From a virus (taxonomy: Duplodnaviria > Heunggongvirae > Uroviricota > Caudoviricetes), in the IMG/VR virus record IMGVR_UViG_3300045450_000131, positions 1-33,227 of that record: a DNA stretch of 33,227 bases, one strand, 5' to 3'. Both the position numbers and the translations under genes were made by a program. This document shows positions 2,370 to 32,986 of this stretch, one piece after another. Position 1 is the stretch's first letter, and every line of letters begins with the position of its first letter. The notes under the pieces are model-generated. The model saw only the letters and a list, made by a program, of their open reading frames with translations, had not been told where the DNA came from and did not search any database.

Positions 2370-3028
2370 GCACAAAGAAAGATAATACACGGAAGTGGAA
2401 AATTGCTACTATTATATTAGCGGTAGTTGCATCCATCTCCGTTGCTACTTTAGGTTGGCAGTTAAGGCAGCCAATTATTCGGCAAATTACCGGTAAAAAG
2501 GTAAACCTTGATAATGCAAGGTCTCCAAATCCTGGTAAAGAATCTCAAGCAGATTTAATAAAGTACGTTAATAGCAAAAATGCCATAATGGGAATAAATA
2601 TTGTTAAGGTGGACTTTAAGCTGAATACCCGAAGCACGACCTTTAGATATTATAAAGACGAAGCAGTCACACAAGCATGGAATGATTTTATCGCACGCAA
2701 TGTGCAAGTAGATTTGTTTGGTAAGAATGAGTTAATTAATCAACGAATTGTAAATTTAATTAATGGTCAATTTTCATGTGCACCGGTAGAAGAAACAAGT
2801 GCAGGGATGGTTATCCCAACAATTAGAGAACATGCAACGACAGTTTGTTTAGCGCCTATACCTCCAGGGTATGGCGACTTTATTGGGTTTATTAATGTGT
2901 TTTTAAGACAGCCGCCAAGTTTAGCAGATATTAAAGACGTAGAAACTGAAACAAGAAAACTCTCGCTTGATATGTATGAACGAGATATCGTAAAATCAAA
3001 TAAGAAGTTTGATATGTTTAAAATGTAA
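2366..3028 (+). CDS. Single-pass membrane protein with predicted periplasmic GAF-like domain, paralog 2
   Basis: ATGA overlap with the previous gene; TM helix IATIILAVVASISVATLGW; motifs RIVNLING and VCLAPIPPGYGDFIGFINVFL align with paralog 1. Confidence 0.55.
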   Translation: MSTKKDNTRKWKIATIILAVVASISVATLGWQLRQPIIRQITGKKVNLDNARSPNPGKESQADLIKYVNSKNAIMGINIVKVDFKLNTRSTTFRYYKDEAVTQAWNDFIARNVQVDLFGKNELINQRIVNLINGQFSCAPVEETSAGMVIPTIREHATTVCLAPIPPGYGDFIGFINVFLRQPPSLADIKDVETETRKLSLDMYERDIVKSNKKFDMFKM

Positions 3029-3052
3029 AAAGGGGCCATATGGCCCCTTTTT
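3027..3052. terminator. Bidirectional intrinsic terminator
   Basis: Perfect palindrome AAAAAGGGGCCATATGGCCCCTTTTT between convergent genes. Confidence 0.85.
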
Positions 3053-3944
3053 ATTTGTACTTACGAAGTTCGCTCCGAGTAGGAGCTTTCTCAATAACAT
3101 CATTAGATAAGTTATACTTTGCGAGTACCTTGTGATTGGCGCTTTCTCGAGAAATAACAGTTTTCTTTGGTTGAATGCGACTCCAACTTTCAATGAAATA
3201 ATGAGAGGTGGGTGGAATGTCAAAAGCTCCATTAGAAAATGTCCTCTGGTGCTGAATTCCTCGAATTGTTTTCTGCTGAGGATTCATTTTATCCCACGCT
3301 TTAATATCAATATTCCCCGGACGAGTATAATAATATTCAATTTTACGTGCATCTTTGTAGTTGTAAACATACCAGATTCCGTCAACCTTATTCAGCTCGG
3401 TATTTTCGTCAATCAGGATGCGTGCTTCTTTGTTTTTAGACTTTTCAATTTCAGCGTATTTCCTACGACGTGCGGCGTTGCTGACTCGCCGATCATTTGT
3501 CATCAAAATGTCTGTTTCGGGATCGACATACCACAAAACATAGCTTGCATACTCGAGGTCTCGCCAGCCAGAATAGTTATCGTAGATGAAGATTTCCCCA
3601 TCAACCTTTTTTGTGTTAATTTTGACGTACTGAAACAGGTGAAGCAGGATGTGGTCGTTCACAACCTTTCGCTTATCAAAGTTCTGGCAAAACTCGCTAT
3701 AGAAGTCATCCCACTTTCGCCCGACATTTTTCTCAATCATACGCTTGAGAGGGCTGAGGTTTTCGTTGAACTCTTTGCGATCCCCATAGGTACTGTAACG
3801 CTTCTTCATGCTCTCGCGGCCACCGAAAGGGTTGCCATCTTCATCGCGAATTTCGTACTTGGTTTTACGGCGTTGTTCACGGTAAGAACGTTCGTGGCCA
3901 ACGCGGGCATTTTCGGTCAGGATTTTGTTAAGGTCTTGACGCAT
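3051..3944 (-). CDS. Conserved hypothetical protein, basic, early
   Basis: 297 aa, AAGGAG RBS, early promoter upstream. Motif KEFNENLSPLKRMIEKNVGRKWDDFYSE resembles an uncharacterised bacterial family (LNENLAPLRRYL...VGRPW..VYSE). Confidence 0.85.
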   Translation of the reverse strand: MRQDLNKILTENARVGHERSYREQRRKTKYEIRDEDGNPFGGRESMKKRYSTYGDRKEFNENLSPLKRMIEKNVGRKWDDFYSEFCQNFDKRKVVNDHILLHLFQYVKINTKKVDGEIFIYDNYSGWRDLEYASYVLWYVDPETDILMTNDRRVSNAARRRKYAEIEKSKNKEARILIDENTELNKVDGIWYVYNYKDARKIEYYYTRPGNIDIKAWDKMNPQQKTIRGIQHQRTFSNGAFDIPPTSHYFIESWSRIQPKKTVISRESANHKVLAKYNLSNDVIEKAPTRSELRKYK

Positions 3945-11775: not shown

Positions 11776-11806
11776 AAAAAGAAAAAGGCCGCAATTGCGG
11801 CCTTTT
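11776..11806 (-). terminator. Intrinsic terminator
   Basis: AAAAGGCCGC-AATT-GCGGCCTTTT followed by a U-rich tract on the minus strand. Confidence 0.8.
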
Positions 11807-29827: not shown

Positions 29828-29849
29828 AAAAGGACCCTAGGGTCCTTTT
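29828..29849 (-). terminator. Intrinsic terminator
   Basis: Perfect palindrome AAAAGGACCCTAGGGTCCTTTT after the DUF1328 gene. Confidence 0.75.
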
Positions 29850-31754: not shown

Positions 31755-32102
31755 TTAAAATTCCTGATTGCTGGCAACTTTTACGATGCTTTTCTGCTTC
31801 TTTAAGTTAGCAGGCTGGCCCGTACCGAGCTCGTCGTGAGAGGCAATTGCATACAGGTCAATCAAGGTTGGATTTTTACCATGCCGTTTGTATAAGATAC
31901 TAATGTCGTGTGTTAAATGGGCATGAATAAGACCAGAATCTCTTAACACTCCAGCCACAAAGTGCTGATCCTTTGCCCCAAACCTAGACATTGGATCAGC
32001 ACTTTTCTGTTTAATGAATTCTTGTAGCTTAGCTGAAACTTCTTGCTTATGTTTAGCTAAAGTTTGTCTGAATAGCTCGCACTGTCTGAACTTTACAGTC
32101 AT
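31755..32102 (-). CDS. RelE/YafQ-fold putative mRNA interferase toxin
   Basis: IHAHLTHDISILY and IASHDEL correspond to YafQ [ED]CH[IL]..D.LLIY and GSHSEL. Confidence 0.65.
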   Translation of the reverse strand: MTVKFRQCELFRQTLAKHKQEVSAKLQEFIKQKSADPMSRFGAKDQHFVAGVLRDSGLIHAHLTHDISILYKRHGKNPTLIDLYAIASHDELGTGQPANLKKQKSIVKVASNQEF

Positions 32103-32275
32103 AGCAGATTATCCTGCATCAAGCTCAGAATCAACTCGGCTCCATCTTGTTCTTTGCCAAAATTGCTTTCCTGAACATTAAGAGCTTCCGTCAGGATTGC
32201 TTCAGAAAACTTTACGTCTTCCTGCATTGCAGCTTCAGTAATAAGGACTTGAGAGAGGAGGTTAGATTTGTTCAT
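32099..32275 (-). CDS. Small acidic protein, candidate antitoxin
   Basis: 58 aa, acidic, ATGA-coupled upstream of the toxin. Start moved to ATG 32275 because ATG 32299 is too close to the promoter. Confidence 0.55.
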   Translation of the reverse strand: MNKSNLLSQVLITEAAMQEDVKFSEAILTEALNVQESNFGKEQDGAELILSLMQDNLL

Positions 32276-32302
32276 GAATGAATTATAACACAATTTCATG
32301 AA

Positions 32303-32310
32303 TATTTATA
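32303..32310 (-). promoter_or_regulatory. T4-type late promoter TATAAATA
   Basis: Exact box directly abutting the inverted-repeat element; a TATAAT also lies at 32282-32287. Confidence 0.65.
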
Positions 32311-32473
32311 CAGGTTTATTTGCAGTAAGCACCATTGAAAAGTTGCAACGGACTCGAACCGTATACACCATTCAACCTTTTGACTTTGCTGGTGGCCACC
32401 AGCTTTGTCAGACTGCGCAGTCACATTGCTAATGATTATCACCATTAGCTGGTGCTTACTGCAAATAAACCTG
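32311..32473 (-). ncRNA. Candidate structured ncRNA: 24-bp terminal stem enclosing four hairpins, one with a TpsiC-type loop
   Basis: Perfect IR CAGGTTTATTTGCAGTAAGCACCA (32311-32334) / TGGTGCTTACTGCAAATAAACCTG (32450-32473). Internal hairpins at 32428-32449, 32411-32422, 32381-32410 and 32338-32381 (ACGG-TTCGAGT-CCGT). No plausible CDS. Confidence 0.65.
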
Positions 32474-32561
32474 GAGGAGGATAACAGAATCGAACTGTTG
32501 CCGGCTCATCACCGACAGGCTTGCTTTCGAAACAAGTTACACACCTTGTGCCCTATCCTCC
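32472..32561 (-). tRNA. tRNA-Ser(CGA), type II, atypical 8/4 fold, U73, encoded CCA
   Basis: GGAGGATA/TATCCTCC acceptor, D arm GCAC-AAGGT-GTGT, anticodon arm CTTGT-TTCGAAA-GCAAG, variable arm TGTCGG/CCGGCA, T arm ACAG-TTCGATT-CTGT, then T-CCA. Confidence 0.85.
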
Positions 32562-32986
32562 AATATGGCAATTATATCACTTCTGATTTCCATGAGTATA
32601 ATTCCCAACCTATTTTTACCATCGTTACCACAAACTCCCCAGTACTTGTCACCCCAGTGATTTGTCTCCTCCAAATATGCATCACCTGTATCAAGTAGAA
32701 GCTGCATAAACTTTGGCTGGCTAAACTTTTGGATTAGCAAGTCGCGCATTACATCTTCTTTGATTTCTTCCCAGTCACTTCTTAAGGTGACTTTCTTACC
32801 TAGGTTCTTTGCAATCTGTGCGGTAGATGCTTCTTGAATTTCTTTTCGCTGCTTTAAATCTAAAGTTTTAGCAGCTTGATATGCATGCTCCGTGCTTCGG
32901 TAAGGAGCTCCTTCATATACAACCCACACCGACCAGAAGTTTGAGAGAAATCGATTTTCGTTAAAGAAGCCTTTAATTTCATTCAT
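32537..32986 (-). CDS. NADAR (YbiA/DUF1768, T4 gp30.3-like) family protein
   Basis: FLSNFW, STEHAYQAAK, AK.LGK, QKFSQ, LLDTG, DKYWG and GKNRLGIILMEIR motifs; start ATG 32986. Confidence 0.92.
   Translation of the reverse strand: MNEIKGFFNENRFLSNFWSVWVVYEGAPYRSTEHAYQAAKTLDLKQRKEIQEASTAQIAKNLGKKVTLRSDWEEIKEDVMRDLLIQKFSQPKFMQLLLDTGDAYLEETNHWGDKYWGVCGNDGKNRLGIILMEIRSDIIAILEDRAQGV

Follow-up and report, generated by a model that had tools for sequence, protein, structure and literature searches.

What lies between the last transfer RNA (tRNA) of a giant phage's tRNA array and the promoter of the toxin-like gene pair that follows it? The window analysed here, a 33,227-nucleotide (nt) stretch of DNA from a member of the Caudoviricetes (IMG/VR record IMGVR_UViG_3300045450_000131), is the first 33 kb of a 162-kb jumbo-phage record that is estimated to be ~45% complete. 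On its minus strand, at 32311-32473, it holds a 163-nt element, here called E1, which folds into a five-way junction closed by a perfect 24-base-pair (bp) stem, P1. An earlier note on this DNA, made from the letters alone, had described E1 as a new phage non-coding RNA (ncRNA) released by tRNA processing. We find that E1 is fused to the 3' end of tRNA-Ser(CGA), that it contains tRNA-like parts, that relatives lack it at the same site, and that its design recurs behind other tRNAs. The reading we favour, to which we give about an even chance, is that E1 is a co-transcribed, tRNA-derived and tRNA-like trailer RNA whose two-turn stem masks the CCA of the tRNA and is cut during processing, probably by RNase III. 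The earlier interpretation, an ncRNA linked to a tRNA and possibly masking its CCA, was right in outline, but most of the specific options it offered were wrong.

The minimum free energy of E1, computed using RNAfold, was -79.5 kcal/mol, compared with -41.1 +/- 3.8 kcal/mol for a background of 200 dinucleotide-preserving shuffles (z = -10.2), none of which folded as well (0/200). Sequence and fold bore out in every detail checked the earlier description of a perfect 24-bp stem around four hairpins with about 8 unpaired nt: the unpaired junction bases number only 8 (AAUGU and CAA), distributed over linkers of 0, 5, 0, 0 and 3 nt. This inverted repeat is the longest spaced inverted repeat in the 162-kb record. 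The parts of E1 are as follows, in window coordinates:

32450-32473, minus strand: 5' strand of P1 (E1 positions 1-24), which opens with the C and A that end the tRNA-Ser CCA.
32428-32449, minus strand: H1, a D-arm-like hairpin of 7-9 bp (GCUAAUG/CAUUAGC) with the D-loop-like, GG-containing string AAUGGUGAUAAU.
32411-32422, minus strand: H2, a 4-bp hairpin (GACU-GCGC-AGUC) that is a perfect 12-bp palindrome in the DNA and stands at the place of the tRNA anticodon arm.
32381-32410, minus strand: H3, with 4 bp, an A3/A3 internal loop, 6 bp and a GGCC loop, at the place of a class II variable arm.
32338-32380, minus strand: H4, with an 8-bp stem, a 10-nt 5' bulge (AAUGGUGUAU), a 4-bp helix (ACGG/CCGU), the loop UUCGAGU and a 2-nt 3' bulge.
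32348-32362, minus strand: T-arm within H4 (ACGG-UUCGAGU-CCGU), with canonical U54 U55 C56 R57 A58 and the closing pair G53-C61.
32311-32334, minus strand: 3' strand of P1 (E1 positions 140-163), which starts UGGUGC and stops one base before TATAAATA.

Both ends of the element lie where the earlier note had put them, since P1 begins at C and A of the CCA (32473 and 32472) and its 3' strand ends one base before the promoter, with TATAAATA at 32310-32303. The 5' strand of P1 ends in GCACCA, resembling a tRNA 3' end, and H1 carries the typical D-loop string AAUGGUGA. The heptamer AAUGGUG is found three times in E1, in H1, in the H4 bulge and in the 3' strand of P1. Over the whole window AATGGTG was counted 17 times, against 5.0 +/- 2.1 expected, with 14 of the 17 on the minus (coding) strand and three of these in E1. 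The tip of H3 (32388-32403) is a perfect 16-bp palindrome, GCTGGTGGCCACCAGC, and carries the E. coli Chi octamer GCTGGTGG on both strands; the 162-kb record contains 15 copies of this octamer, and its presence in H3 is probably due to chance.

The plus strand of E1 folded nearly as well (z = -9.3), because any inverted repeat must fold on both strands. The canonical T-loop, UUCGAGU with its G-C closing pair, is found on the minus strand only, and this is the strand of all 25 tRNAs of the record, of its transfer-messenger RNA (tmRNA) and of the neighbouring genes. Open reading frames (ORFs) of 49 and 44 amino acids (aa) span E1 and traverse the paired strands, and a coding role was set aside. 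A proposed mimicry of CRISPR repeats was likewise dropped, in that the 3' strand of P1 has AUAAACC, as do type I-E repeats, but no repeat hairpin is adjacent to it.

The order of the arms had been said to fit no known tRNA-like RNA. Judged from its sequence and predicted helices, the topology of E1 is that of a class II tRNA cloverleaf. As in the class II tRNAs (Ser, Leu, Tyr), a closing stem encircles four hairpins to give a five-way junction, the first arm has an AAUGGU-type D-loop string, and the last has the T-loop consensus. E1 differs from them in its closing stem, which is 24 bp long rather than the 7 bp seen in tRNA, and in having neither a 7-nt anticodon loop nor a 3' CCA, while its junction linkers are unlike those of tRNA. 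The T-loop is the only 7-nt loop in the element, and a decoy for host anticodon nucleases, one of the options raised earlier, would be left with no anticodon loop to offer. Within H4 the 8 + 4 bp minihelix (12 bp) is as long as the stacked acceptor stem and T-arm of a tRNA, and its D-loop-like bulge is well placed to reach the T-loop.

Several of these parts can be matched to individual tRNAs. The T-arm agrees at 15 of 16 positions with that of tRNA-Ser(CGA) in a related 350-kb phage (G001; L006), and a 13-nt core of it recurs unchanged in three tRNA-Leu genes of the genome that carries E1. The H4 bulge sequence AATGGTGTATA is identical at 11 of 11 positions to the D-arm of tRNA-Ser(CGA) in L095, and P1 at its start resembles, over 14 nt, the D-loop region of tRNA-Ser(GCT) in G001. 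At the E1 locus ARAGORN called the neighbouring tRNA-Ser only and not E1 itself, the tRNA family RF00005 gave no match over 32200-32650 at E-values up to 10, and the Rfam library as a whole had no match to E1 at gathering scores and nothing meaningful at E-values up to 10, as the earlier note had expected of a new RNA.

Is E1 the only structure of its kind? Scanning all tRNA 3' ends in the genome for distal complementarity revealed one other strong case, E2, and modules in which a long stem takes in or abuts the CCA of the preceding tRNA were found in other phages as well:

G000 41577-41696 (= L004:9578-9697), minus strand: E2, 120 nt, directly behind tRNA-Val(UAC) (z = -8.0).
L230:10168-10294, minus strand: counterpart of E2 behind tRNA-Val(UAC) in G001, 127 nt, with a 20-bp stem.
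L230:6746-6847, minus strand: CCA-embedding module behind tRNA-Gly(UCC) in G001, 102 nt (z = -5.3).
L023:5743-5849, plus strand: module behind tRNA-Phe(GAA), 107 nt, with a perfect 23-bp stem starting at CCA (z = -7.4).

The closing stem of E2, of 23-24 bp, starts with the UACCA of tRNA-Val and encloses in turn a D-like hairpin (loop UGGUU), an 8-bp hairpin, a 23-nt variable region and a T-arm (GAAG-UUCGAUU-CUUC), which stacks directly on the closing stem and runs into its 3' strand as it does in tRNA. The next tRNA-like gene abuts E2 without a gap. The counterpart in G001 likewise ends in a T-arm and contains a hairpin with a GG loop. Between it and E2 the outer 8 bp (UACCAUUU / AAAUGGUA) are unchanged, while the 5' strand of the inner stem differs at 9 of 12 positions and all 20 pairs are kept. 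Since these nine changes leave every pair intact, the stem of E2 appears to be under selection as a paired structure; the compensatory evidence holds for E2.

Across the five modules the closing stems measure 24, 24, 20, 22 (with a bulge) and 23 bp and cluster at two helical turns. Sequestration of the tRNA CCA, which had been put forward as one option among several, fits this recurring feature, at least four other phage modules having a stem of 20-24 bp that starts in or at the CCA. Stems of at least 20 bp that start between -5 and +3 of a tRNA 3' end were found for 3 of 79 tRNAs but at only 4 of 6000 random sites (p = 7e-5), and stems of at least 13 bp with the same placement for 5 of 79 tRNAs and at 56 of 6000 random sites (p = 0.001), counts that include the two tRNA-Val modules, which are orthologues and not independent. 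In five phages at a greater distance, whose sampled clusters comprise ~60 tRNAs, the genes are closely packed and the CCA-embedding design is missing; on this sample the design is confined to a sub-lineage.

Two related phages carry homologous modules of ~145 nt placed 2-3 nt behind tRNA-Leu(UAA) and tRNA-Thr(UGU) (L006:2589-2737 and L013:3545-3689, both on the plus strand), with a closing stem of 14-16 bp, a hairpin of the AACCG...CGGTTA type and the T-arm GGACG-UUCGAUU-CGUCC. A link between E1 and the GRTGRTTATCC box of the cluster's other tRNA mimics was tried and set aside as superficial: H1 fits GRTGRTWATC, but the box in those modules is the 3' strand of a TAACC-N10-GGTTA hairpin that is absent from E1.

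How E1 came to lie where it does can be approached through its neighbours. All 25 tRNAs of the 162-kb record and its permuted tmRNA are encoded on the minus strand, along which the order is a NADAR-domain gene, tRNA-Ser(CGA), E1, an extended -10 promoter, a 58-aa ORF and a 115-aa ORF:

32472-32561, minus strand: tRNA-Ser(CGA), the last of the array, called by ARAGORN, with its 3' end fused to E1.
32282-32310, minus strand: promoter region of the downstream pair, read by consensus, with TATAAATA at 32310-32303 and the extended -10 TGTGTTATAAT at 32292-32282.
32099-32275, minus strand: antitoxin-like ORF of 58 aa that overlaps the next gene by 4 nt; context, outside E1.
31755-32102, minus strand: 115-aa protein of RelE/YafQ/YoeB fold (AlphaFold predicted local distance difference test score 87); context, outside E1.

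A simple sigma-70 scan called no site in the promoter region 32282-32310. The tRNA-Ser(CGA) itself has a U discriminator, an unusual D-arm and an acceptor/T stem open to two readings, 8/4 or 7/5, and it too gave no match to RF00005 at E-values up to 10. It is overlapped by the 3' end of the NADAR gene, and the pairing of these two genes is conserved in L006, L095 and L097.

In L097, a contig from ENA, the same site has no E1: 12 nt lie between the CCA and a TTGACA box, beyond which come an identical TGTGTTATAAT and the gene pair seen here, and E1 occupies the place of this -35 box. In the 350-kb phage (L006), 212 nt of spacer without significant structure (z = -0.8) separate the CCA from tRNA-Ser(GCT), which comes next. 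Because E1 is missing from the same site in both, it is, on this comparison, a lineage-specific insertion of ~160 nt that displaced the -35 region. The four sequencing runs are all stored as contigs, none of those listed is recorded as RNA, and the one that covers the window in full and may be its source is a leaf metagenome. Two phages from other studies (runs X3 and X4), ~90% identical to this one, carry E1-specific sequence with no indels. The X3 contigs extend 30 nt into E1, covering the 3' strand of P1; those of X4 cover 32232-32432 with 19 differences (from the 3' strand of P1 to part of H1) and again from 32451 onwards (the 5' strand of P1). Since sequence at this level of identity has been kept without indels, E1 is stable within its sub-lineage.

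Contigs of both runs end inside E1 (over window 32340-32451), those of X3 within P1 and those of X4 within H1. The X4 contig that stops at 32432 continues with nine unlike letters, CTACGCTAA, whose reverse complement stands at another contig end, at 31876; this tail could be an assembly effect at the hairpin or reflect a different H1 in that phage.

Beyond this sub-lineage, searches for E1 returned nothing of substance, in collections from which records very close to the genome of the window may be missing. There was no match to 32250-32620 by blastn among 50,697 phage records or to E1 among plasmids, and six exact or degenerate E1 patterns found no true match in viral contigs, the sequences returned being unrelated. 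The terminal 20-mer had no relevant match in viral contigs and, in 185,579 GTDB species genomes, a single chance match, in a gene that by our own reading has YcaO-like motifs. One metagenome scan gave two chance matches only; nhmmer and short blastn against 80 related loci gave generic T-loop matches only; and a covariance model built from E1 alone (R1) identified nothing further, whether in the genome that carries E1, in four related genomes that are complete or among 111 loci. None of the relatives fetched for the NADAR protein and the 115-aa protein has E1.

Taken together, these observations suggest the following course of events. E1 would be transcribed jointly with tRNA-Ser(CGA), as we infer from there being no terminator or promoter between them, and P1 would take the end of the tRNA CCA into a duplex, bringing together the 3' end of the tRNA and the start of the next transcription unit. 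RNase III needs about 20 bp of double-stranded RNA, or two helical turns, as a minimal substrate; P1, with 24 perfect pairs, reaches that length and may act as a processing site, most likely for the RNase III of the host. An RNase P-type recognition of the T-arm/acceptor-like stack would be an alternative and, in the case of E2, with its T-arm stacked on the closing stem, such an activity might measure from the T-loop. Cleavage in P1 would liberate the tRNA with a short 3' extension, to be trimmed by exonucleases, would separate the tRNA transcript from the downstream RelE-like operon, and would release a compact RNA of ~115-150 nt with a T-loop/D-loop elbow. The most natural guess is that this RNA would be a decoy or a platform for tRNA enzymes that bind the elbow. 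In this scheme the transcription of E1, the nuclease used and the stability of the product are what we infer.

A number of points weigh against this reading. The covariance model of E1 finds neither E2 nor anything in the four related genomes, and what unites E1 and E2 as a class is therefore design rather than demonstrated homology. The stem of E1 takes in no more than 2 nt of the CCA, that of E2 all of NCCA. The T-arm of E1 sits in H4 without stacking on P1, and with linkers so unlike those of a tRNA an L-shape is not assured. The phage encodes no RNase III in the 162-kb fragment, so that the RNase III reading has to assume a host enzyme. L097 and L006 have no E1 at the orthologous site, and it is therefore dispensable for tRNA-Ser(CGA) in these phages. 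Finally, every helix of E1 is perfect, and H2 and the tip of H3 are exact palindromes, as in a young palindromic insertion that arose at the level of DNA.

This last point leads to the rival that survives best, which we nevertheless consider unlikely: that E1 is a palindromic DNA insertion without an RNA function of its own, either a selfish element resembling a miniature inverted-repeat transposable element (MITE) or a product of recombination or replication slippage that includes tRNA scraps. A lineage-specific ~160 bp placed between CCA and promoter, and missing from L097 and L006, is in keeping with such an origin. However, E1 is present as a single copy in the 162 kb, although further copies might lie in the host genome, and the sequences on either side of it (CCTCCTC to the left, TATAAAT to the right) form no direct repeat; despite its terminal inverted repeats, the search for further copies that the earlier note had proposed thus yielded neither the copies nor the target-site duplication of a MITE. 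The perfection of the 24-bp terminal inverted repeat also fits an insertion, but its terminal 20-mer gave one chance match in species genomes and none of relevance in viral contigs, and E1 gave none in plasmids. Much the same holds for the internal structure. The exact 12-bp and 16-bp palindromes of H2 and the H3 tip, a plus strand that folds almost like the minus strand, and tRNA-like pieces that match different tRNAs piecemeal can all be accounted for at the DNA level, whereas the T-loop, GG loops and CCA-embedded stem recur in E2, in which the stem covaries between phages, and E1 itself is kept without indels in relatives that are ~10% divergent.

It appears improbable, too, that E1 acts purely in cis, as a transcription insulator or terminator or as a protective 3' cap between the tRNA array and the RelE-like operon. 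Its position, exactly between two transcription units and abutting a promoter, invites this explanation, and a 24-bp stem that starts from the CCA would block 3' exonucleases. Yet no U-tract follows the stem, which is followed by UAUAAAUAUU on the minus strand and by GAGGAGGAU on the plus strand, and the terminator scan made no call. The genome does use perfect palindromic hairpins as bidirectional terminators elsewhere, but its terminators are simple hairpins of 10-14 bp flanked by A/T runs, not five-way junctions. Moreover, a cis-acting role would leave the inner T-arm and D-like loops superfluous, and E2 sits between two tRNAs, where termination would be harmful.

Hairpins of the form AAAAGG...CCTTTT, perfect palindromes of 22-28 bp that are probably bidirectional terminators, were seen at window positions 3026-3053, 11783-11806 and 29828-29849, and further ones at G000 47096-47119 and 69653-69678; they are the house style of this genome.

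A still slighter chance attaches to E1 being a Y-RNA-like partner of a Ro60-type protein. The likeness is to Y RNAs of the YrlA type, which similarly combine a long terminal stem with a tRNA-like domain that has T-like and D-like loops, and YrlA-like RNAs occur in phages too (Chen et al. 2014, PMC4201824). YrlA is defined by GNCGAA(N0-1)G near the 5' end and by arms in the order V, T, acceptor-like, D (PMC4201824); in E1, by contrast, the D-like arm comes first and the T-arm last, and the GNCGAA Ro-binding motif is absent from the 5' strand. The family RF02553 gave no match at the E1 locus at E-values up to 10, its best score in the genome being 24.9 bits elsewhere, against a gathering score of 69. 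The TROVE/Ro60 domain (PF05731), which for a Y RNA would be expected in a gene within ~4 kb on the same strand, gave no match in the 162-kb record, although with the record ~45% complete a Ro60 gene could lie outside it. In addition, the TAACC-N10-GGTTA hairpin that is conserved in the other modules of the cluster is missing from E1. A kinship with Y RNAs therefore finds no footing in the gene content, motif, arm order or family match at this locus.

The remaining proposals of the earlier note, a retron-like msr/msd RNA, suggested by terminal inverted repeats followed by AGC, and an RNA antitoxin for the RelE/YafQ-like toxin that E1 adjoins, are largely refuted and keep hardly any probability, since no reverse transcriptase (PF00078) turned up in the 162 kb, a 58-aa partner lies upstream of the toxin-fold gene and overlaps it by 4 nt, making this a protein pair, and the pair occurs in four contexts without E1 (L097, L099, L100 and L101), which removes the case for an antitoxin.

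To describe that neighbouring pair as YafQ-like was fair, given the RelE/YafQ/YoeB fold and the 58-aa partner. The AlphaFold model of the 115-aa protein aligned with the toxins YafQ, YoeB and RelE at template-modelling scores of 0.7-0.8, normalised to the target, and neither Pfam nor NCBIfam had a match for this protein. About 20 homologues were seen in metagenomic phage contigs, in neighbourhoods that vary, and a search with the 58-aa protein returned only itself.

If E1 is indeed a tRNA-like trailer that masks CCA, a bolder extension can be considered, which we regard as a long shot. CCA-masking trailers would then be an undescribed class found in one jumbo-phage lineage, in which certain tRNAs are made as inactive pro-tRNAs, a tRNA-shaped trailer keeping their 3' ends paired in a duplex of two turns. 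The release of these tRNAs would be timed or conditional, through the host RNase III or a phage enzyme, and the UGGUG strings of the freed trailer, next to the T-loop elbow, could bind tRNA 3' ends or the enzymes that act on them. The complement of UGGUG, a CACCA 3' end, is present on 11 of the 25 phage tRNAs (counted by eye), and NCCA is known to be bound by the T-box and by the P15 loop of RNase P.

How does E1 compare with known systems? In the RNase III stems of bacterial rRNA operons and phage polycistronic transcripts, as in E1, a duplex of about two turns forms from the sequences that flank a structured RNA. Such a processing stem joins the ends of neighbouring units, and one double-strand cut in it yields three products. 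E1 differs from these stems in that it encloses 115 nt that are not rRNA, and in that one strand of its stem is the 3' end of a tRNA.

The closest parallel is provided by phage T4, whose species 1 and species 2, small stable RNAs that are co-transcribed with its tRNA cluster, have been known since the early 1970s. RNA D (species 2) and RNA C (species 1) follow the last tRNA of this cluster at distances of 1 and 6 nt, and RNA C forms a closed structure of several hairpins that includes, close to its 3' end, the T-arm CCGGG-UUCGAAU-CCCGG. RNA C thus resembles E1 in its placement behind the last tRNA on the same strand, in size, in its T-arm and in its closed fold. It differs from it in having a short, imperfect closing stem that does not overlap the CCA of the preceding tRNA, while E1 differs in that its T-arm is nested in an extra 8-bp helix; by blastn, neither rnaC nor rnaD has sequence similarity to E1. 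Rfam has no family for RNA C or RNA D. Work of the 1970s reportedly showed that E. coli RNase III cuts species 1 specifically. The primary transcript of T4 spans the whole tRNA cluster and ends after species 1 (PMC2330249), and the roles of RNA C and RNA D are unexplained (PMC3014915; PMC9697503).

By analogy with these small RNAs of phage tRNA clusters, T4 species 1 in particular, E1 is most likely not new in kind. Of the earlier proposal of a new phage ncRNA, a tRNA-fused, co-oriented non-coding module stands as the best reading of the locus; its novelty was overstated, since RNAs of this kind were already represented by RNA C and RNA D. E1 is an insertion in a single lineage, and as such a lead rather than a discovery. 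It shows the placement of the T4 RNAs in a jumbo phage unrelated to T4, and adds to it a stem of two helical turns that takes up the CCA end of the tRNA before it. Should this stem prove to be a processing or masking device, it would offer a handle on the maturation, and perhaps the timing, of giant-phage tRNA sets, and on the role of the T4-type RNAs as well.

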